Source: Patescibacteria group bacterium (GTDB taxonomy: Bacteria > Patescibacteriota > Microgenomatia > 0-14-0-10-38-17). Taken from it: a DNA stretch of 64,000 bases. Position 1 is the stretch's first letter. Each line of letters starts with the position of its first letter. The notes below the pieces were generated by a model that worked only from the letters and a program-made list of their open reading frames with translations, searched no databases and was not told where the DNA came from. Below are positions 12,567 to 38,662 of the stretch, piece by piece. The stretch is taken from NCBI GenBank assembly GCA_050953885.1, contig JBMNNJ010000001.1, positions 527,437 to 591,436 of the forward strand. The letters run 5' to 3'. A program made the translations under genes and the position numbers.

Positions 12567-13337
12567 ATGCCAACCTCACCTGTCCGTGCCTCAACCCAAG
12601 AGGCCATTCCCATTGAAGACATTCGCGACAATTTAGTTATTTTAAAAGATGGCTCGGCGGCGCTGATTCTCCAAATAAGCGCCCTAAACTTTGACCTTCT
12701 TTCTCAAAGAGAACAGGAAGCGCTTATTTTTGCCTATGGCAGTCTTCTTAACTCCCTTAGTTTCTCAATCCAAATTTTTATTCGTTCGCAAAAAAAAGAC
12801 ATTACCGGCTACCTTAGTCTCTTGGAAAAGGCCAAAGATAATCAAAAAAATCCTCTTCTTAAGAAACTTATCACCGACTATCAAAAATTTATTAAAGAAG
12901 TGGTCACCAAAACAGAAATTTTGGATAAAAAATTTTATCTGGTGATTCCCTTTTCCTCACTTGAATTAGGAATAGGCGCGGCAACAAAAAGCCTTACCGC
13001 CAGTCTCCCTTTTTTTAAAAAATCTGCTCCCTCTCAAAAATTAGACTTAATTGAGGTTTCCCAAAAGGCGCAGACCTCACTTACCCCCAAGAGGGACCAT
13101 TTAATCAGGCTTTTTGCCCGCTTGGGGCTTTCTGCCCGCCAGCTCACCACCAACGAGCTTATTTACCTTTTCTTCCGTATTTACAATCCCAACGCCAAGG
13201 GGATTGAACCGGCCCTTACCAAAGAATATCTCTCGCCCTTAACCACCAGCGTTTTAACACCACCGAAAGAAGAAATCGCAAAGACAGAAAAGCCTGAAAC
13301 TCAAAATGAGAAGTCAGAAACAAAAGCGCCGCAGTAA
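12567..13337 (+). CDS. virB4: VirB4/TraE-family N-terminal domain (stand-alone ORF)
   Basis: 'IPIEDIRDNLVILKDGSAALILQISALNFDLLSQREQEALIFAYGSLLNSL.FSIQIFIRSQK' matches the Gram-positive VirB4/TrbE N-terminal region; ends in a low-complexity linker. Confidence 0.55.
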   Translation: MPTSPVRASTQEAIPIEDIRDNLVILKDGSAALILQISALNFDLLSQREQEALIFAYGSLLNSLSFSIQIFIRSQKKDITGYLSLLEKAKDNQKNPLLKKLITDYQKFIKEVVTKTEILDKKFYLVIPFSSLELGIGAATKSLTASLPFFKKSAPSQKLDLIEVSQKAQTSLTPKRDHLIRLFARLGLSARQLTTNELIYLFFRIYNPNAKGIEPALTKEYLSPLTTSVLTPPKEEIAKTEKPETQNEKSETKAPQ

Positions 13338-13798
13338 AGTCAAAAATCAAAATTTAAAAGTTTATCCGCCAGCTGGCGGATAAAATTCAAAATGAAAATG
13401 TAAAAAGTAAAAAGTTAGTAACTCGTAACTGGTAACCAGTAACTCGTAATAAGAAATCAAGATTAAATAGCAAATATCAAAATGCAAAACCAAGTTCAAA
13501 GACCAAAACTATAAATTAAATCTCAAAACGCAAATGACAAACTGCTCTGCCGGCAAGGCAGGTCTACATGGCAAATGTTAAAACTTTTTAAAGCTTAAGG
13601 TTATTTTTTTAGATTTTAGTTTTGAGTTGTAGTTTTGAGTTTTGACATTTGAGATTTAAGTTTATTTATTGTTTTTGAATTTTGATTTAGGTTCTAATCT
13701 TTGCGCTTTGCGTTTTACGCTTTTTTATTACTTATTACGAGTTACATATTACGGATTACTGATTTTTAATTTTGACTTTTGAATTTTGAATTTTTTTC
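13338..13798. repeat. mosaic hairpin-forming repeat lying between the two VirB4 halves
   Basis: Contains all modules: 'caaaa' arms, 'ccgccagctggcgg', the 'aactggtaaccagt' module, 'tgccggcaaggcagg', and ends 'ttttgaattttgaatttttttcATG'. Confidence 0.8.
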
Positions 13799-15631
13799 AT
13801 GCCCAATCCTCTTAACCAACTATTAGCAATAATCAAGCCTCCTAAAAAAGAAAGTCAGGCGGAGGCGGCCGCAGAAAAAGAAGGCGGCGACACCTTTGGC
13901 GCCGGCGTGCCCACCATTAAAGACATCATCGCCCCGGCCGCCATTGAAGTGGATTTTTCCTATCTTAAAATTGACAATAAATATTTACGGACTTTTTTTG
14001 TCGCCGGTTATCCCCGCTTTGTTTCCGCCAACTGGCTCTCGCCCCTGATTAATTTTGACCACACCTTGGATATTTCCATGTTTATTTATCCAGTGGAAAT
14101 AAAGGGAACCTTAGACGACTTGCGCCGGAAAATCGCCGAAATGGAAGCGGAAATTTCCACCGACATCCAGCGGGGCCGGGTGGTTGATCCCTCCACCCAA
14201 GCAAAATTAGAAGACGCCCTTGCCCTTCAAGAAGAGTTAGCCAAAGGAACAGAGCATTTTTTTCAATTTAGCCTCTATATCACCATTCCCGCTGATTCTC
14301 TTCAGGAATTGGAAGAGGTAAGTCGTGAAGTTGAAGCCACCTTGGGTTCGCTTTTAATTATTGCCAAAACGGCTAGCCTGCAAATGGAAGAAGGCTTTAA
14401 AACCACTCTCCCTTTGGGAGTTGATCTTTTAAATATTACCCGTAATATGGACACCACCTCACTAGCCACCACTTTCCCTTTTACTTCCTCAGAACTGACC
14501 GCCAACGAGGGGATTTTATACGGTGTTAACCAACATAATGGTTCTTTGGTTATTTTTGACCGTTTCAATTTGGAAAATTCTAATGCGGTTATTTTTGGCA
14601 AGTCCGGTTCGGGGAAAAGTTATCTGGTAAAACTTGAAGCCCTGCGCTCTTTAATGATGGGCACGGAGCTGATTATTATCGACCCCGAGGAAGAATACCA
14701 CCAGCTTTGTGAAGCAGTAGGAGGCGAGTATATTAAATTTGGTTTTGGCTCGCGGGCAAAAATCAACCCTTTTGATCTCCCCAGTCAGCAACTATCGTTT
14801 CCCGGCGAAAAAACCGAAAATGAACTTGGCTTCAAGCTTCTCTCTCTTCATTCGCTTTTAAAAATAATGTTAGGAGAGATGAGCGCTAACGAAGAAGCAA
14901 TTTTGGACCGAGCACTCGTGGCCGCTTATAAAAGCAAGGGAATCACTCCCGATCCCGCCACTTATGAACAGGAGCCGCCGCTTTTAGAAGATCTTTATAA
15001 AACTCTTTTGGGAATGGAAAGTAAAGAGGGTCAGCTTTTGGCTACCCGTTTGGAAAAATTTGTTAAAGGCTCGCTTACCGGCATTTTTGACCAGCATTCC
15101 AATGTTAACCTAAAAAATCCTTTTACGGTTTTTTCCTTAAAAGACGTCGAGGGCGACTTAAGGCCGGTGGTAATGTTTATTATCCTTGATTACATTTGGA
15201 CCAAGGTTAAGGCAGAGCTTAAAAAAAGAATCGTCATTGTTGATGAGGCGTGGTATTTAATGCGCTATCCTGATTCGGCCCAGTTTTTGGAATCTATCGC
15301 CAAAAGGGCGCGCAAGTATTATCTGGGGCTTTCCACTATCACCCAAGACGTTCCCGATTTTCTTTCTTCGCCCTATGGGGAATCAATTATCACCAATTCT
15401 TCTGTTCAAATTTTAATGAAACAGCATCCGGCCGCTATTGACCGCTTAGGCGAGGTTTTCTATCTTTCCGAGGGGGAGAAAAACTTCCTCCTCTCGGCCA
15501 ATATTGGCGAAGGGCTTTTCTTTGCCGGCGAAAACCATGTGGCCATTAAAGTCATCTCCTCCCCTCAAGAACATAAATTGGTTAGTTCCAGTCCGAAAGA
15601 GAAAATAAAAGAAACGACCAAAGAAAAATGA
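13799..15631 (+). CDS. virB4: VirB4/TraE-family ATPase, central and C-terminal domains
   Basis: 'FVAGYPRFVSANWLSPLINFDHTLDIS' VirB4 mid-region; Walker A 'GKSGSGKS'; Walker B 'IVIVDEAW'. Confidence 0.8.
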   Translation: MPNPLNQLLAIIKPPKKESQAEAAAEKEGGDTFGAGVPTIKDIIAPAAIEVDFSYLKIDNKYLRTFFVAGYPRFVSANWLSPLINFDHTLDISMFIYPVEIKGTLDDLRRKIAEMEAEISTDIQRGRVVDPSTQAKLEDALALQEELAKGTEHFFQFSLYITIPADSLQELEEVSREVEATLGSLLIIAKTASLQMEEGFKTTLPLGVDLLNITRNMDTTSLATTFPFTSSELTANEGILYGVNQHNGSLVIFDRFNLENSNAVIFGKSGSGKSYLVKLEALRSLMMGTELIIIDPEEEYHQLCEAVGGEYIKFGFGSRAKINPFDLPSQQLSFPGEKTENELGFKLLSLHSLLKIMLGEMSANEEAILDRALVAAYKSKGITPDPATYEQEPPLLEDLYKTLLGMESKEGQLLATRLEKFVKGSLTGIFDQHSNVNLKNPFTVFSLKDVEGDLRPVVMFIILDYIWTKVKAELKKRIVIVDEAWYLMRYPDSAQFLESIAKRARKYYLGLSTITQDVPDFLSSPYGESIITNSSVQILMKQHPAAIDRLGEVFYLSEGEKNFLLSANIGEGLFFAGENHVAIKVISSPQEHKLVSSSPKEKIKETTKEK

Positions 15632-31998: not shown

Positions 31999-31999
31999 G

Positions 32000-32073
32000 T
32001 GCGCCTGGCCGGATTTGAACCGGCACTTTTTGGCTCCGGAGGCCAACGCTTTATCCAGTTAAGCTACAGGCGC
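32000..32073 (-). tRNA. tRNA-Arg (anticodon CCG)
   Basis: Cloverleaf: acceptor GCGCCUG/CAGGCGC, anticodon loop CUCCGGA, T-arm GCCGG-UUCAAAU-CCGGC. Confidence 0.8.
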
Positions 32074-32078
32074 GAAAG

Positions 32079-32166
32079 CGGAGGGAGGGAGATTCGAACT
32101 CCCGTGGGCCGTAGGGCCCGCAAGGTTTTCGAGACCTGCCAGATAAGCCACTCCTGCATCCCTCCA
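32079..32166 (-). tRNA. type-II tRNA with long variable arm, probably Ser (anticodon CGA)
   Basis: Acceptor GGAGGGA/UCCCUCC, T-arm GGGAG-UUCGAAU-CUCCC, variable arm GGGCC-CUAC-GGCCC, loop CUCGAAA; anticodon-stem folding partly ambiguous. Confidence 0.55.
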
Positions 32167-32263
32167 AAGCAAGATACTAAGGGACTAAGATACTAAGAAA
32201 TAAGAATAAAATTTTTCTTCTCCCCGGGTTTCTTTGTATCGGGTATCTTTGTATTTTACCTAG

Positions 32264-32337
32264 TGCGCCTGGGGCGATTTGAACGCCCAACCGCCAGCTC
32301 CGCAAGCTGATGCTCTATCCAGTTAAGCTACAGGCGC
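32264..32337 (-). tRNA. tRNA-Arg (anticodon reads GCG)
   Basis: Acceptor GCGCCUG/CAGGCGC, anticodon arm UCAGC-UUGCGGA-GCUGG, T-arm GGGCG-UUCAAAU-CGCCC. Confidence 0.7.
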
Positions 32338-32754
32338 AAAAGAAAAGTTAAAAGTTAATCCGCCAGCTGGCGGATTAAAAATCAAAAATCTAGCGCAAAG
32401 CGCAAAGATTAAAACGCAAAACCAAGCTCAAAGACCAAAACCATAAACTGAATCTCAAAACGCAGATGGCAAGCTTAAATCTCAAAACTACATGTTAAAA
32501 CTCAAAACTAAAAAACTTTAGGGCTTAATATTTGTATTTCTAAATTGTAATTCTGTTTTTGTCTTTCAAGTTTTGAGTTTTGCGTTGTAGTTTTGCGTTT
32601 TGCGATTTGAGATTTGAGTTTATTTATTATTTTTGAACTTTGATTTAGGTTTTGATCTTTGATATTTGCACTTTGCGTTTTTTTATTACGAATTTTGCGT
32701 ATCTTTCTTATTATATCAAACCTCACTTGCAAAACGCCAAAAGTTTGTTATACA
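32338..32754. repeat. mosaic intergenic repeat containing an inverted copy (copy 4, ~32471-32630) of the 170-bp core element and 'taatccgccagctggcggatta'
   Basis: Reverse complement of the core 'taatatttgtatttctaaattgtaattctgtttttgtctttc'. Confidence 0.8.
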
Positions 32755-33354: not shown

Positions 33355-35136
33355 GTGATGAGTCAGATTGACGAGGTTTTGGCCAAAACGGATATCGTGG
33401 AATTAATCGGCAGTTATTTGCCTTTAAAAAAAGCCGGCCGTAATTTTAAAGCCCTCTGCCCTTTTCATGCCGAAAAAACTCCTTCTTTTATTGTTTCCCC
33501 CGAACGGCAAATTTTTAAATGTTTTGGCTGTCAAATTGGCGGAAACGCGCTTAAATTCTTAATGGAGTATGAAAAAATGGATTTTGGCGAGGCGCTGCGG
33601 TTTTTGGCTCAAAGAGCAGGGATTACCCTAAGAGATTATCGGCCCGGACCTCAAGAGGCCAAGCGGGAGCGCCTCTTGCAACTTAATCATCTGGCGGCCG
33701 AACTTTATCATTTTTTGCTTACTGAGCATCGGGCGGGCGAGCCGGGCCGGAAATATTTAGCCCAAAGAGGGATTAAGAAAGAAACAATTGAGGAATTTAA
33801 CCTTGGTTATGCCCCACTCCGCCGTAATTTACTGGAGGAATTTTTGGTGGGCAAAAAGGGATTTAGCCGGGAAGAGCTGGAGCTTTCCGGTTTAGTTTTT
33901 AAGAACAACAAAGGCCAATTGGGAGATCGGTTTTTCCAGCGCCTTATTTTCCCCTTAACTGACCAGCGGGGTAATGTTTTGGGTTTTTCCGGGCGGTTAA
34001 TTTCCCCCCGTGAGGGTACGGGTAAATATATTAACACCCCCGAAACGCCGCTTTACCATAAAAGCCAAATGCTTTTTGGTTTGGCGCAGGCAAAGGAGGC
34101 AATTCGGCAGGAGAAGAAAGTTTTGGTGGTGGAAGGAGAGTTTGATATGATTTCCCCCTATCAGGCGGGGATTAAAAATGTGGTGGCCATTAAAGGCAGT
34201 GCCTTAACCGAAGAGCAAGTGAAGCTTTTACATCGTTTTAGCGAGGAGATTCTTTTGGCTTTAGATGAGGATAGCGCCGGCGACGCGGCGACGCGGCGGG
34301 GAATTCAGGTGGCCTTAAATGAAGGCCTGAATGTTTTGGTGGTTTCGCTTTTAGGCAAATATAAGGATCCGGATGAGGCGGTGCGGGCGGATTTGGATTT
34401 TTTTAAACAGAGAATGGCGGCGGCAGTGCCGGTTTTTGATTTTTTTATTGCCTCGGCCCTGAAGCGTTTTGACATTAACTCGGCTTGGGGGAAAAAGCAG
34501 GTGGTTGAGGATTTGGCGCCCATCCTTTCCGGCGTTGAAGATGAGGTTTTACTCTCTTCCTATGTTAAGCAAATGGCCTCGGCTCTAAAAATTGGCGAGG
34601 AGGCAATTTTTGCCAAAATCGCCAAGACAAACGAAATGTCTTCGGGAAATAATTTTAGAAAGAGGGAGGATTTAGCCTTAACAGAGAAAAAAGAAAACCG
34701 ACAGGAGGTTTTGGCCCACTATTTTTTGGCTCTTTGTTTTCAAACCCATCGCGAGGAGGCGCTTTTAACGCCCGGCCTTGAGGAATGGCTTGATAATCCC
34801 GGCTATCGGCGCTTAATTAAAGCCTTGAACCAGTTTATGGGAAAAGAAAAAAAATTTTCTTCTTCTGGTTTTTCCCAGAAGTTAGCGCCGGAGCTAAAAG
34901 AAATTTTTGACGAGTTTTATTTAACTCCCCTGCCGGAGAAATTAACCGATCCGTCAGAGCAGGAAAAAGAAATTAATCGGGTTTTGGATGAATTAAAAAA
35001 ACTTTATTTAAGAAAACGTTTGGAAAAATTAACCCAAGAATTAGAGATAAAAGAGAAGGCAGGCGAGGAAAAAACCCTGACCGTGCTTGAGGAAAAAATT
35101 AGCCAAACCCTAAAAGAGCTGAAAATGGAGAGCTGA
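33355..35136 (+). CDS. dnaG: DNA primase
   Basis: CHC2 zinc finger 'CPFHAEKTPSF...CFGCQIGGN'; TOPRIM 'VLVVEGEFDMIS...LALDEDSAGDAATRRG'. Confidence 0.85.
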   Translation: MMSQIDEVLAKTDIVELIGSYLPLKKAGRNFKALCPFHAEKTPSFIVSPERQIFKCFGCQIGGNALKFLMEYEKMDFGEALRFLAQRAGITLRDYRPGPQEAKRERLLQLNHLAAELYHFLLTEHRAGEPGRKYLAQRGIKKETIEEFNLGYAPLRRNLLEEFLVGKKGFSREELELSGLVFKNNKGQLGDRFFQRLIFPLTDQRGNVLGFSGRLISPREGTGKYINTPETPLYHKSQMLFGLAQAKEAIRQEKKVLVVEGEFDMISPYQAGIKNVVAIKGSALTEEQVKLLHRFSEEILLALDEDSAGDAATRRGIQVALNEGLNVLVVSLLGKYKDPDEAVRADLDFFKQRMAAAVPVFDFFIASALKRFDINSAWGKKQVVEDLAPILSGVEDEVLLSSYVKQMASALKIGEEAIFAKIAKTNEMSSGNNFRKREDLALTEKKENRQEVLAHYFLALCFQTHREEALLTPGLEEWLDNPGYRRLIKALNQFMGKEKKFSSSGFSQKLAPELKEIFDEFYLTPLPEKLTDPSEQEKEINRVLDELKKLYLRKRLEKLTQELEIKEKAGEEKTLTVLEEKISQTLKELKMES

Positions 35137-35299
35137 AGAGGTATAATAAGTAAAGTTAAAATTCAAAAGTCAAAAGTCAAAATTGCAAGTCAAAAGTCAA
35201 AAGTTTTTTACTTTACTTTTTAATTTTAACTTGTACTTTTGACTTTTAAATTTTGAATTTTGAATTTTAATTTCATTCGTGTATTTTAAAACATAAAAC
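35137..35299. repeat. mosaic intergenic hairpin repeat
   Basis: 'aaattcaaaagtcaaaagtcaaaattgcaagtcaaaagtcaaaagtttttt ... ttgacttttaaattttgaattttgaatttt'. Confidence 0.75.
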
Positions 35300-36424
35300 A
35301 TGGCTAAAAAATTAAGCAAGAATAAAACCAGCACCCTTTCCCCGACTAAAGACATCCTCTCGCCTGCGGCAAGGGATTTATTGGCGCGAGGTAAAGATGA
35401 AGGGTTTTTAACCCAAGACGATGTGTTGGCGGTTTTTCCTGATGCGGAAAACCGTCTGGAGGAATTAGACGAGTTTTATAACCAAGCCCTTAGGGAAGGG
35501 GTGGATATTTTTGAGGCGATTGATCTTGAAGAGGCCGGGGAAGAAGATTTTGAAAAGCTAAGCCGTCAAATTGAGGAGCTGACTCTTCAGCAAAATGAGC
35601 CGCTGGATCCGGTGCGCAATTATTTGCGGGAAATTGGTCGGGTACCCCTTCTTAAGACTGATGAAGAGTATGAGTTAGCCAAAAAAGTGGCTGAGGGATC
35701 GCGGGAAGCAAAGCAGAAGTTAATTGAGGCAAATTTACGGCTGGTGGTTTCTATTGCCAAGCGCTATATTGGCCGGGGCCTGCCGTTTTTGGATTTGATT
35801 CAGGAGGGCAATAAAGGGCTGATCAGGGCGACCGAAAAATATGACTATCGGCGGGGTTTTAAATTTTCTACCTATGCCACCTGGTGGATTCGGCAGGCGA
35901 TTACCCGGGCCATTGCCGATCAGGCGCGGACGATTCGCATTCCGGTGCATATGGTGGAAACAATTAATAAGGTTTATCGTGCCACCCGTCAGCTGACACA
36001 AAAATTAGGTTATGAGCCAAGCGCGGCAGAAATTGCCCAAGAGCTTGACATCCCCGTCTCTAAGGTAAAGACGGTTTTTAAAATTTCCCAAGGCACGGCT
36101 TCTCTTCAAGCGCCGGTAGGCGAGGATGGTGATTCGGTTTTGGGCGATTTTATTGAGGATTCGGTGCAACTTTCGCCCTATGAGGAGGCTTCGCGAGAGC
36201 TTTTAAAAGAAAACATCGACGAAGTGCTTTCCTCGCTTACCGATCGGGAGGCCAAAGTTTTGCGGATGAGATTTTCTCTTGACGGCGATCAACCCCACAC
36301 CTTGGAAGAAGTGGGCCGTCATTTTGGCGTTACCCGGGAGCGGATTCGCCAAATTGAAGCCAAAGCCCTGCGCAAGCTAAAGCACCCCTCCCGCCGCCAT
36401 AAACTTCAGGATTATTTGGATTAA
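35300..36424 (+). CDS. rpoD: RNA polymerase sigma-70 factor
   Basis: Region 2 '[50 protein letters not shown]'; region 4 HTH '[20 protein letters not shown]'. Confidence 0.9.
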
Positions 36425-36593
36425 AAACTGCCTTACCAAAAGACGCGAATTAACGAGTAATGGGCGCGCCCTGAAGCGCGCTAATCCATTCTATTCTGAC
36501 CGCATTATTTAACTTGTACAGAGAAAAAATTTAGGCTGGATGAAGTGGTATTTTAAACGAGAAGTTGTTATAATGCGAGTTAATAATTTGATA

Positions 36594-36646
36594 TTCCTCG
36601 GTAGCTTGGTTGGTAGACCTGCCTGCCGGCAGGCAGGGCGTCCGCC
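36594..36646 (+). pseudogene. partial duplicate of tRNA-Asn 5' half (positions ~1-31) carrying a 20-nt perfect palindrome insertion (36618-36637, 'cctgcctgccggcaggcagg')
   Basis: 'ttcctcggtagcttggttggtagac[cctgcctgccggcaggcagg]gcgtccgcc' versus genuine tRNA 'tcctcggtagctcagttggtagagcgtccgcc' at 36918. Confidence 0.6.
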
Positions 36647-36668
36647 GTTGTTTTTGTATGATTTAAGT

Positions 36669-36914
36669 ATGTATTATGTTTATGTGATAAAAAGTGAAAA
36701 AGACAATAGTCTTTATAAGGGGATTACTAACTGCCTATCAAGGAGGTTGAAAGAACATAATTTGGGGAAAAATCAATCAACAAAAAGTAAAATTCCTTAT
36801 GTTTTGGTTTATCATGAGACGGTTGATAACAGGATGAAAGCGAGAGAAAGAGAAAAGTGGTTTAAAAGTGGTGAGGGCAGAGAGTTTTTGAGAAAAATTA
36901 TTTTAGAAAAGTGA
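36669..36914 (+). CDS. small GIY-YIG nuclease (COG2827/UPF0213-like, tRNA-adjacent type)
   Basis: 'YYVYVIKSEKDNSLYKGITNCLSRRLKEHNLGK...IPYVLVYHETVDNRMKAREREKWFK'. Start at internal ATG 36669; the ORF-track N-terminus would read through the tRNA fragment. Confidence 0.7.
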   Translation: MYYVYVIKSEKDNSLYKGITNCLSRRLKEHNLGKNQSTKSKIPYVLVYHETVDNRMKAREREKWFKSGEGREFLRKIILEK

Positions 36915-36917
36915 TAT

Positions 36918-36990
36918 TCCTCGGTAGCTCAGTTGGTAGAGCGTCCGCCTGTTAAGCGGCTGGTCGGAGGTTCGAGTCCTCCCCGAGGAG
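36918..36990 (+). tRNA. tRNA-Asn (anticodon GTT)
   Basis: Acceptor UCCUCGG/CCGAGGA, D-arm GCUC-AGUUGGUA-GAGC, loop CUGUUAA, T-arm GGAGG-UUCGAGU-CCUCC. Confidence 0.8.
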
Positions 36991-37176
36991 CACGGTCTTT
37001 CTTACTCAAAACAGAAAAGCAAGTTTAGTTTATCCTTAAAATACTTCAAAAACCTATTGAAGAGTGTGAGCTTTTATTTTCTCTGGAAAATAGCTCCTAA
37101 AAGTTGTTTTAGGAGAGACGGTAAATACGTTTTTTGTCAAAGCTTCAAAAAAGCAATAGAAAAATAATAGCTTTGT

Positions 37177-38265
37177 TTGGGAAAAATGATACAATATGGT
37201 GGAGATATGGGCAAGAAAGACAAAAGTTCGGCTAAAAACAAGGCCTCTTGGCATTATTTCTGGTTTTGGCTTTTAACATTAGGCTTTTTTTGGCTAATTC
37301 TATTTGCTGTAAAATTTGATTTTTCAGAAAACTCCTCTGGAGCTTGGCTAGTTTTATTTCTCCTAAATATCCTTTTAGGGATAGTTTTCTTCTTAAGATT
37401 TATTGGTAACCTTTTTCAATCTTTTAAAAATAAAGATAAAAAAGAACCCATAAGGTATGGTTTTGCCGCTTTAGCTTTAATAATTTTATTCTTTACTTCT
37501 TTCTATACAGCTTCCCCTATTGCCAAGGCCTACTTCGCCCTGTCAAGTAGCGAAGTTAAGGGAGAACAAACAGCTAATGATCCCGCCAAACTTTCTCAGC
37601 CTGTAGAAGAAGCTAGTAGCGAAAAATCAAAACCCTCGATAAACAACAGTAATAGCGTCAATATCAATACGGTTGAGTGTATTGGCCCTGACGGGAAACA
37701 TTTTGATACAACTCTAGAGGAATGTACAGCCTTAAATGAAAAATGGGGTGAAGAAGTAAATTATATGGTTGATTGCCCAATTCATCAAAGTTGTGGTGGG
37801 GGGACCAAAAGAATGGCTAAAAAAGAGTGTGATAATTCTATTTGTTGTGAGGTTGGCGGAGTTTGGGAGCTGTACCTTTCTAAAACTGCTTGTCAACAGG
37901 CTCAAGATAAATATTGGAAAGATTATTATGATGATCTTTATGGTAAGGAGAGCAAGGAGTGGGAGGAAGAGCTTAATGGGAGATATAGTAATTCATCCAA
38001 TAACGAAAATATCCCCTATTCAGTCCCTCAAAACCCAGTTCCTGCCAACACCCCTATACCAACAGTAAAAGCGGATAATAATTATGCGAACTTAAGATGT
38101 AAAGGAGATGTTCGTCGTTGGCTGGAGACTCAAAAGAGTTTATTACGGCAATATGCGAGAGCGAAGAACATGCTAAATAGTAGCTGGTATGATTATGGAG
38201 TTTTTAGATTGGAAAGGGAAGCAAAAAATAAATTAGACGAATGCGATATTCTCTATCCTGTCTAA
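37177..38265 (+). CDS. membrane protein with extracytoplasmic Cys-rich domain, hypothetical
   Basis: Three or four N-terminal TM helices, then 14 Cys in about 120 aa. Confidence 0.4.
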   Translation: MGKMIQYGGDMGKKDKSSAKNKASWHYFWFWLLTLGFFWLILFAVKFDFSENSSGAWLVLFLLNILLGIVFFLRFIGNLFQSFKNKDKKEPIRYGFAALALIILFFTSFYTASPIAKAYFALSSSEVKGEQTANDPAKLSQPVEEASSEKSKPSINNSNSVNINTVECIGPDGKHFDTTLEECTALNEKWGEEVNYMVDCPIHQSCGGGTKRMAKKECDNSICCEVGGVWELYLSKTACQQAQDKYWKDYYDDLYGKESKEWEEELNGRYSNSSNNENIPYSVPQNPVPANTPIPTVKADNNYANLRCKGDVRRWLETQKSLLRQYARAKNMLNSSWYDYGVFRLEREAKNKLDECDILYPV

Positions 38266-38353
38266 AGGTATTGAGAAAATTGCGATCGTTGTTCCTTATA
38301 ATTTTTAGTAAAATGATTTAAAGTATAGTTGTTGATATTTTTTATAAGCTTTT

Positions 38354-38662
38354 ATGAATAAAGAAATACAGAAAAGAAAACTTTTTTCTAAAAATAAAAA
38401 GACAAATTTGATTTTATTGATAGCGGGTCTGTTGGGGTTTATTAGCGGTGGTGCTGCAATTCAGTTTCCTGGACTAGTTGCGTTGATTGGCGGTGTTGGG
38501 GGATTAATTAAAAACAGGAAAATTGATGAAAAAGACAAAAAAATGCCTTGGGTGGTTTTGGTTTCGATTATTTTATTAGTTGTTGGTGTTATATCTCTCC
38601 TTGTGCTTTTTCTGATTAACCCAATTGAATCAATAGAGAGGTCAAGGCAGTTAGCTAACTAG
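38354..38662 (+). CDS. small membrane protein, hypothetical
   Basis: Two TM helices. Confidence 0.35.
   Translation: MNKEIQKRKLFSKNKKTNLILLIAGLLGFISGGAAIQFPGLVALIGGVGGLIKNRKIDEKDKKMPWVVLVSIILLVVGVISLLVLFLINPIESIERSRQLAN

Follow-up and report, generated by a model that had tools for sequence, protein, structure and literature searches.

A small GIY-YIG gene and a conserved palindrome nested in a partly duplicated tRNA-Asn gene of a patescibacterial genome: a probable selfish cassette of bacterial tRNA genes

SegB of the phages T4 and T6 is a free-standing GIY-YIG homing endonuclease that lies in a tRNA cluster and targets the conserved T-psi-C motif, and the two papers on it describe intronless homing as well as recombination-dependent tandem amplification of tRNA and truncated segB (PMC2330249; PMC13096335). 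In Patescibacteria, group I introns interrupt the tRNA-Asn gene, with 35/36 as the known insertion position (bioRxiv 10.1101/2025.07.03.662931; PMC13011429). A survey of GIY-YIG proteins from 2006 described Slx1-like GIY-YIG domains that are fused to, or lie in operons with, methyltransferases, one of which is a TrmH homologue (PMC1564403). Here we describe a unit at the tRNA-Asn gene of a Patescibacteria group bacterium (assembly GCA_050953885.1), in which a small GIY-YIG open reading frame (ORF) and a 20-nucleotide (nt) perfect palindrome, CCTGCCTGCCGGCAGGCAGG (hereafter PAL), are nested in a partial duplication of the tRNA gene. The analysis covered 64,000 nt of contig JBMNNJ010000001.1 (the window), to which all positions given without a locus name refer; loci of other genomes are designated by L and a number. 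We read the unit, with moderate confidence, as a resident homing-type selfish cassette, made up of an Slx1/UPF0213-like GIY-YIG nuclease and its cognate hairpin and seated in a tRNA gene.

The tRNA-Asn locus and its relatives

The intact tRNA-Asn(GTT) gene was called by ARAGORN on the plus strand and matches the Rfam covariance model RF00005 with 69.2 bits at 36918-36990 (model positions 1-71). Its leader and its positions 1-36 are duplicated upstream at 36590-36649, where PAL splits the copy, and the ORF of 81 amino acids (aa) occupies the gap between this pseudo-tRNA piece and the intact gene, with a TGA stop codon that ends 3 nt 5′ of the latter. An initial annotation had proposed a GIY-YIG gene between tRNA-Asn and a duplicated 5′ half of the same tRNA carrying a 20-nt perfect palindrome, which is borne out by ARAGORN, Rfam, Pfam and sequence reading; the duplication had been put at about 31 nt and proved longer, reaching to about position 36. 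The upstream similarity, for which a formal alignment had been suggested, is above chance, since the Smith-Waterman score of tRNA-Asn against its own flanks is 48 as compared with at most 21 in 30 shuffles. The repeat scan resolved two blocks, D1 of 38 nt at 84% and D4 of 15 nt at 87%, and the similarity of the leader reaches into 36903-36917, i.e. the end of the ORF (repeat family D1). PAL (10+10 in the repeat scan) is single-copy within the window even at up to three mismatches, with a chance expectation of zero, and its folding, likewise proposed at the outset, yields an 8-bp stem with a 4-nt loop.

The extended -10 promoter box TGTTATAAT is found just 5′ of the fragment in the window and in two relatives with RpoD ~80% identical (L091 and L092), and just 5′ of the tRNA itself in an empty locus (L254) and an intron-bearing one (L257). 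Since the box sits just upstream of the fragment, it is the fragment that holds the original position of the tRNA gene. From this placement across genomes, TGTTATAAT appears to be the original tRNA-Asn promoter, which would now drive the fragment, the ORF and the tRNA together. RpoD matches assign the organism of the window to Candidatus Shapirobacteria, within the Patescibacteria. The empty locus L254 likewise belongs to Ca. Shapirobacteria (GCA_018052565.1; RpoD 91% identical); there, TGTTATAAT and a short leader precede a tRNA-Asn with the very sequence of the window's, and the fragment, PAL and the ORF are absent. In L091 and L092 the order dnaG, rpoD, fragment with PAL, GIY-YIG gene and tRNA-Asn is kept, and L095 has the unit from the fragment to tRNA-Asn too, but its surroundings are rearranged and rpoD lies on the other strand, ~2 kb downstream. 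The presence/absence polymorphism expected of a homing endonuclease gene is thus found at this locus, with the window, L091 and L092 occupied and L254 empty, so that the comparison suggested with the initial annotation revealed both variation among related genomes and an unoccupied site. No unoccupied site was found within the species itself, as every contig with an identical GIY-YIG protein or an identical RpoD carries the cassette, which is old in this lineage and fixed within the species. In each lineage the fragment matches its own tRNA, down to an indel in the D-loop (L091 and L092) and an anticodon stem that differs (L095). The L095 fragment ends at the same tRNA position as that of the window despite the differing tRNA sequence, and in strain L005 the D-loop of the fragment is identical to that of the tRNA. 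This tracking indicates that the fragment and tRNA-Asn undergo concerted evolution.

Two further relatives (L257 and L259; RpoD 79% identical) hold a group I intron in the anticodon loop of tRNA-Asn, at 3405-3716 in L257, and ARAGORN misses these tRNA genes because the intron splits them. The L257 intron matches Rfam RF00028 with 75.9 bits (E=2e-19) and served as positive control for the scan of the window, in which the tRNA was the sole match over 35000-38500 at E values of up to 1, with no leader or hairpin family and no intron. It could be asked whether the fragment is the old 5′ exon of such an anticodon-loop intron with a GIY-YIG endonuclease, the tRNA having been restored later, since the fragment stops at about position 36 in the window as well as in L091 and L095, 35/36 is the known insertion site in Patescibacteria (bioRxiv 10.1101/2025.07.03.662931), and L257 and L259 carry a true intron in the same gene. 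However, the window gives no Rfam intron signal even at this permissive threshold, the gaps between fragment and start codon (19 nt) and between stop codon and tRNA (3 nt) are short, and the ORF is followed by a complete tRNA with its own copy of the leader instead of a 3′ exon. Furthermore, the end of the fragment ranges from about position 26 to 57 at other tRNAs, and the endonucleases reported for tRNA-Asn introns of Patescibacteria are HNH, not GIY-YIG, enzymes (bioRxiv 10.1101/2025.07.03.662931). A wrecked intron is largely refuted by these points and very improbable, in agreement with the initial annotation, which had argued against a group I intron.

The 3′ side of tRNA-Asn carries further DNA of this kind. 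Another GIY-YIG gene, which encodes 78-92 aa (MWYLYVLNCD...) and belongs to a different clade, is found immediately 3′ of the tRNA in L092 (1608-1940), L257 (3786-4112) and L259. After it comes a copy of the tRNA 3′ end, which in L092 and L257 reads gagtccaagccgaggagc and has no PAL, so that the layout amounts to a mirror-image, 3′-end duplication; neither a second GIY-YIG gene nor a repeat of the tRNA-Asn 3′ end was found in a search of the window. Large serine recombinase genes (Resolvase, Recombinase, Zn_ribbon_recom) directly follow tRNA-Asn in L007 (285-1901), from the same species, and in L091 (3282-4811), and in the window the 3′ side holds unrelated, AT-richer genes with a GC content of 0.34-0.38 over 37-40 kb. 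The 3′ side is thus a variable island site, and tRNA-Asn is, by the same comparison, a hot spot at which selfish DNA of several kinds has settled. The proposal that the unit marks the left edge of an AT-rich island stands only in so far as the downstream DNA varies between strains and carries serine-recombinase elements; an att repeat was sought in the window and not found. With such islands at hand, the duplicated piece might be taken for an attL/attR-type repeat left by an integrase-borne island of which the GIY-YIG gene is cargo. Yet the duplicated part is the 5′ end with its leader, the unit of ~330 bp has no recombinase ORF, the recombinase islands lie on the opposite (3′) side of the tRNA, and the tRNA 3′ end is not repeated elsewhere in the window, so that this reading is refuted for the unit 36590-36917 by its size and gene content and its probability is minimal.

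The features of the unit are collected in Table 1. A scan for sigma-70 promoters and terminators gave no promoter-like or terminator-like site on the plus strand and did not call PAL an intrinsic terminator; the T-run after PAL begins 12 nt past the stem. The box TGTTATAAT is not listed by this simple scan because it has no good -35 element. RNA and DNA folding of the leader brought out the PAL hairpin alone as prominent, the overall z-scores (-0.35 and -1.32) not being significant. A longer ORF of 124 aa starting at 36540 was rejected as the gene, since the homologues of the GIY-YIG protein start with MYYVYV and the ATG at 36540 precedes the conserved TGTTATAAT box. Upstream of the unit, a GC hairpin, GCGCGCCCTGAAGCGCGC, occurs at 36464-36481, 40 nt past the rpoD stop codon; it may be the rpoD terminator and was not called by the terminator scan.

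Table 1. Positions of the elements of the tRNA-Asn unit in the window
Element	Position	Strand	Remark
Extended -10 promoter box TGTTATAAT	36566-36574	+	Same 9-mer in L091, L092, L254 and L257
Leader gatat, left copy	36590-36594	+	Sequence reading
Pseudo-tRNA 5′ piece, tRNA positions 1-23	36595-36617	+	Two D-loop mismatches to the real tRNA
PAL CCTGCCTGCCGGCAGGCAGG	36618-36637	none	Clean insertion between tRNA positions 23 and 24
Pseudo-tRNA positions 24-32, gcgtccgcc	36638-36646	+	Sequence reading, repeat scan
gtt, end of the duplication	36647-36649	+	Equals the anticodon if T33 is deleted
5′ untranslated region (UTR), 19 nt, from pseudo-tRNA to start codon	36650-36668	+	15/19 kept in L091
GIY-YIG gene, 81 aa	36669-36914	+	Pfam PF01541; last codons and stop inside the duplicated tRNA leader
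Intact tRNA-Asn(GTT), functional copy	36918-36991	+	Displaced 323 bp downstream of the original position

The protein family and its recurrence at tRNA genes

The protein matches the Pfam GIY-YIG family with 48.1 bits (cut-off 22.6; E=1.5e-12) over residues 1-67. In 29 homologues Y5, Y16, G18, R26, H30, E50 and K66 are invariant and E62 is nearly so; the conserved residues of the GIY-YIG catalytic core (the GIY/YIG tyrosine pair, Arg, His and Glu) are present, and catalysis is predicted. A profile of these homologues, run against the PDB, recovered the UPF0213 structures 1ywl (1.5e-16) and 1zg2 (1.9e-16), followed by SLX1 (8e-6 to 2e-4) and I-TevI (6e-3), and PHROG endonuclease families gave weak matches (E=2.5e-4 and 8.7e-3). 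The protein is thus a minimal, stand-alone GIY-YIG domain of the UPF0213/YhbQ-Slx1 branch without an extra domain. A phage Seg/I-TevI-type enzyme with a C-terminal DNA-binding region was considered and rejected in view of the length of 81 aa, the weak PHROG matches and the Slx1-side relatives in the PDB. The family comprises 32,706 cluster representatives (50% identity) at E values of up to 1e-3 in a library of 1.84 billion proteins. Many annotated homologues carry spurious N-terminal extensions, at least 17 of 44 of them being translated PAL (LPAGRQ, PACRQA) or translated tRNA genes (VELAD, GSNP, FES), which indicates that automated gene calling routinely extends the frame across the tRNA piece upstream.

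The homologues were surveyed with one genome per species and a 9-sequence alignment as query, which gave 80 loci with proteins 45-68% identical, spanning Bacteroidota, Patescibacteria, Planctomycetota, Omnitrophota, Bdellovibrionales, metagenome-assembled genomes labelled Gammaproteobacteria and other groups. In the protein clade of the window a tRNA gene adjoins the ORF on the same strand in 44/53 loci (35 tRNAs downstream, at most 60 nt away, and 11 upstream, at most 150 nt away); in the other clades a tRNA adjoins 13/28 loci. Nine isotypes are represented among the adjacent tRNAs, of which Arg is the commonest, the others being Leu, Asn, Phe, His, Ser, Cys, Lys and Ala. The gene is thus found beside a highly conserved host sequence, its putative target, as homing endonuclease genes are, and PAL and the breakpoints cluster at the D-loop word GG(A)TAG. 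The stop codon of the ORF is formed by U8-A9-G10 of the tRNA in 10/53 loci, and also in L091 and L092, so that ORF and tRNA must share a transcript there. In more than 25 loci the leader of the downstream tRNA and its first ~20-23 nt are repeated 40-90 nt 5′ of the start codon, while in loci with an intact tRNA upstream the ORF is followed by the 3′ part of that tRNA or by a complete copy into which PAL is inserted, as in L048, where the tRNA and the ORF are followed by the leader with positions 1-21, PAL, positions 22-76 and the trailer. The boundary of the ORF within the tRNA varies among loci, from about position 26 to 57.

Tandem arrays occur as well. The cultured Leeuwenhoekiella blandensis MED217 (L032, 1050-2141) has three tandem 327-bp units before the intact tRNA, each consisting of the 5′ part of tRNA-Arg, PAL in the anticodon loop and the GIY-YIG ORF, and the first ORF copy has an internal stop; further arrays were found in L026, L059 and L037. 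In L037 (1880-2200) whole copies of tRNA-Arg(TCT) with a terminator follow the intact gene in tandem without an ORF between them, and each copy carries two PALs, at 21/22 and at 37/38, the canonical intron position. The cassette ORF of L011 is a pseudogene, and the protein subclades track the tRNA isoacceptor. Besides L. blandensis MED217, cultured carriers include Flavobacterium sp. SUN052, an Algoriphagus sp., Mangrovibacterium marinum DSM 28823 and Luteirhabdus pelagi. The wider search for GIY-YIG genes paired with tRNA fragments, which the initial annotation had recommended, thus revealed the same architecture at nine tRNA isotypes in many phyla, and its idea of a mobile GIY-YIG cassette that targets tRNA genes and duplicates part of the target gains support from this recurrence, from the tandem arrays and from the empty site in L254. 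Judged from these sequences, the layout is widespread across bacterial phyla and looks like a selfish DNA cassette.

Between the window and L091 the ORF has a pN of 0.105 and a pS of 0.687 (dN/dS, the ratio of non-synonymous to synonymous divergence, 0.06), which points to strong purifying selection. PAL is identical at 20/20 positions in the same comparison, fragment positions 24-36 at 11/12, the UTR at 15/19 and the 5′ piece at ~19/23, and the rest of the spacer between rpoD and the tRNA is unalignable; PAL and the 5′ UTR are thus conserved over a divergence at which synonymous sites are near saturation. Such constraint would also be expected of a domesticated host gene, whose nuclease and structured leader serve the cell, for example in the maintenance of the tRNA locus or in defence of an integration hot spot, and are simply inherited. 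The presence of the cassette in every contig of the species and in relatives with ~80% RpoD identity, as well as the tracking of tRNA isoacceptors by protein subclades, agree with domestication, and Slx1-like GIY-YIG domains have been linked to tRNA methyltransferase homologues by fusion or operon (PMC1564403). On the other hand, L254, with 91% RpoD identity and an identical tRNA, is devoid of the entire cassette, copies in the L032 array have internal stops and that of L011 is a pseudogene, many different tRNAs scattered over phyla are occupied, and the C-terminus and stop codon of the ORF come from whichever tRNA follows. Overall, we consider domestication rather improbable.

PAL and its partnership with one GIY-YIG clade

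The identical 20-mer lies 7-80 nt 5′ of the ORF, or just 3′ of it, in ~30/80 loci, although the proteins are only ~50% identical. When clades were taken from a neighbour-joining tree, PAL (at most two mismatches) was found within 150 nt of the ORF in 31/53 loci of the window's clade as against 0/28 of the others (Fisher p=2.4e-8), and within the same loci its density is 1.43 per kb beside the ORF versus 0.028 per kb more than 450 nt away, a 51-fold difference. A separate small subclade has TCCGCC..GGCGGA hairpins in place of PAL. These distributions suggest that PAL is a conserved partner of one GIY-YIG clade and not a chance interruption.

An intact tRNA next to the copy allowed 41 PAL insertions to be mapped, and all of them are clean, 20 nt having been added with nothing duplicated or deleted. 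Of these, 21/41 are at 21/22 (GGATA|G, GGTA|G) and 9/41, including that of the window, at 23/24 (GGTAGA|GC); three are at 9/10-10/11, within the same word GGTAG, and a few are in anticodon, variable or T loops. The 2-nt offset between 21/22 and 23/24 would fit a GIY-YIG-like cut with a 2-nt stagger. Variants of PAL keep the capacity to fold: that of L023, CCTGACTGACGTCAGTCAGG, has two symmetric double changes that leave the hairpin intact, and in further variants the register is shifted and a 6-bp stem retained. In the population of the window, 13 contigs carry the ORF and 11 cover the PAL region, six of which (L001, L002, L004, L006, L009 and L010) have CCTGCCTGCCGGTAGGTAGG, in which the 3′ arm shows two C-to-T changes. 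These would leave G-U wobble pairs in RNA and mismatches in DNA, which hints that the PAL hairpin may matter at the RNA level. In L003 (468-507), from the same species, PAL is itself interrupted after CCGG by a second, nested PAL, CCTGCCTGCCGG[CCTGCCTGCCGGCAGGCAGG]CAGGCAGG, which is either a recent insertion polymorphism or an assembly artefact.

PAL is also found without the gene. Among the matches listed, the exact sequence occurs in more than 120 metagenome contigs, and in 80 of these a GIY-YIG gene lies within 400 nt of 4/85 PAL sites and a tRNA within 700 nt of 8/85. Such gene-free copies are intergenic, and they often stand within AT-rich mosaic repeats or form the tip of longer inverted repeats; the flanks of PAL form a direct repeat of at least 8 nt at 24% of sites (3.5% of shuffles) and an inverted repeat of at least 8 nt at 11% (2.8% of shuffles). 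In viral contigs PAL is rare, with 35 stretches in 2.9 million. Fragments with PAL but no GIY-YIG gene adjoin intact tRNAs in L174 (1-150; tRNA-Val 1-21|PAL|22-37) and in L130 (232-420; a tRNA-Ala T-arm piece), and these are either deletion derivatives of the cassette or independent landings of PAL. All this, together with the L037 copies that have two PALs and no ORF between them, speaks for a looser relationship, in which the GIY-YIG ORF with its tRNA duplication and PAL, a common REP-like hairpin, are unrelated and PAL merely landed in dispensable hairpin-forming DNA. That account is difficult to reconcile with the restriction of PAL to one clade, since 13 of the 28 PAL-free loci of other clades also adjoin tRNAs, with the other hairpin types owned by other subclades, with the 51-fold enrichment beside the ORF, and with the complete identity of PAL in L091, where synonymous sites differ at 69%; we therefore regard an unrelated hairpin as unlikely.

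The window itself contains AT-rich mosaic intergenic repeats with GC hairpin modules at 13300-13800 and 32380-32560, the modules being TCCGCCAGCTGGCGGA at 13365 and 32359 and CTGCCGGCAAGGCAG at 13547, and the second block lies directly upstream of a cluster of tRNA-Arg/Ser/Arg genes on the minus strand (31999-32337). The initial annotation had linked PAL to the mosaic repeats at 13555, which is plausible, as exact PAL occurs inside similar AT-rich mosaic repeats in other genomes. The TCCGCC..GGCGGA hairpin type accompanies a different GIY-YIG subclade elsewhere, and no second GIY-YIG gene was found in the window to go with it.

Proposed origin and comparison with known systems

If the unit is a selfish cassette, an unoccupied locus of promoter and tRNA-Asn would have been converted into one with the promoter, a tRNA piece disabled by PAL, a 19-nt UTR, the nuclease gene, and the duplicated leader with a complete tRNA-Asn. 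The partial duplication would keep a functional tRNA, and the insertion would be cheap for the host for this reason. Since the cassette has no promoter of its own, the ORF would be expressed by read-through from the tRNA promoter, and the cut of RNase P at the tRNA 5′ end would set the 3′ end of the message. The nuclease would break tRNA-gene DNA at the D-loop word GG(A)TAG, around positions 21-23, and the cassette would spread through recombinational repair from an occupied allele or a neighbouring copy. The same repair would keep the fragment matched to the tRNA and occasionally yield tandem arrays. PAL would be a hairpin that is recognised or carried by the nuclease clade, and its insertion would destroy the target word in the spare copy.

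Several points weigh against the selfish-cassette reading. A domain of 81 aa has no separate DNA-binding module, so that sequence-specific cutting of a duplex tRNA gene is not obvious, and the regenerated tRNA retains the proposed target word, such that self-cutting would have to be tolerated or rare. The simplest version, in which a single piece ending in PAL inserts at a constant position of the tRNA, was rejected as a complete account, because the boundary of the ORF varies, PAL is found on either side of the ORF and one tRNA copy can hold two PALs. Most PAL copies in the metagenome contigs are gene-free. Fixation within the species and strong conservation fit domestication equally. In addition, the empty site of L254 may reflect precise loss by recombination between the direct repeats instead of a locus that was never occupied, since more distant relatives share the same cassette geometry; the locus is polymorphic whichever the direction of change.

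A further reading, which we put forward tentatively and consider possible but doubtful, concerns PAL itself, which might be the smallest class of mobile DNA known, a 20-nt non-coding hairpin moved in trans by the clade of ~80-aa Slx1-like GIY-YIG proteins. It would insert cleanly, without duplicating its target, at GG(A)TAG or at the 3′ borders of hairpin loops in tRNA-derived or intergenic DNA; its sequence is identical across phyla. The gene nested in the tRNA would then act as master copy in a system that resembles REP/RAYT and uses a nuclease of another fold, and the nested PAL of L003 might be a snapshot of ongoing movement.

If the cassette reading is true, a very large uncharacterised family gains a role, that of selfish cassettes which colonise tRNA genes through partial target duplication without an intron, and many stray tRNA fragments as well as the spurious LPAGRQ/PACRQA N-terminal extensions would be explained. 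The SegB principle, a GIY-YIG enzyme set against a conserved tRNA motif with tandem amplification, would extend to chromosomes across phyla. PAL, in which no base differs between Flavobacteria and Patescibacteria, is a testable candidate for a structure that a nuclease recognises or for a minimal mobile element, and cultured carriers such as L. blandensis MED217 make experiments feasible. A full-text literature search, whose coverage was incomplete and in which absence is no proof, gave no description of GIY-YIG genes nested in duplicated tRNA genes or of PAL.

Among known systems, UPF0213/YhbQ and eukaryotic Slx1 share the minimal GIY-YIG fold and are the best structural relatives of the window protein, while the 2006 superfamily survey mentions neither nesting in tRNA genes nor a palindrome partner (PMC1564403). 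Since Slx1 is a structure-specific nuclease, the analogy suggests that the window protein may recognise a hairpin or a branch. The group I introns of tRNA-Asn likewise invade this gene as selfish DNA, preserve the function of the tRNA and use its promoter (PMC13011429), but in their case function is restored by RNA splicing, whereas the cassette would restore it by partial duplication at the DNA level, without a ribozyme. Integrative elements that regenerate a tRNA gene from a part carried in attP resemble the locus in having an intact copy and a displaced fragment as direct repeat, but rely on a tyrosine or serine recombinase, span kilobases and in most cases duplicate the 3′ end, in contrast to the recombinase-free, ~330-bp cassette with its 5′-end duplication.

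In REP/RAYT systems, short GC-rich intergenic palindromes flank their cognate nuclease gene, and the hairpin type co-varies with the protein lineage; RAYTs are HUH/Y1 (IS200/IS605-type) enzymes, and REPs are species-specific. The pattern of PAL, which is dispersed, specific to one clade and enriched beside the gene and has many copies far from any such gene, resembles this, but the cassette protein is a GIY-YIG and not an HUH/Y1 enzyme, PAL is identical across phyla, and its mobilisation in trans is hypothetical. SegB is by analogy the closest experimentally characterised counterpart. Its gene, too, lies among tRNA genes of the same strand, and the arrays of L032, L026, L059 and L037 resemble the outcome of SegB-driven amplification. 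The two differ in that SegB is of the I-TevI/UvrC-like branch and phage-borne, whereas the window protein, with its 81 aa, is of the UPF0213/Slx1 branch and the cassettes are chromosomal in many bacterial phyla. Furthermore, the available portions of the SegB papers describe no partial tRNA duplication and no conserved palindrome, both of which the cassette has, and place the target of SegB in the T-loop, while the cassette would target a word of the D-loop.

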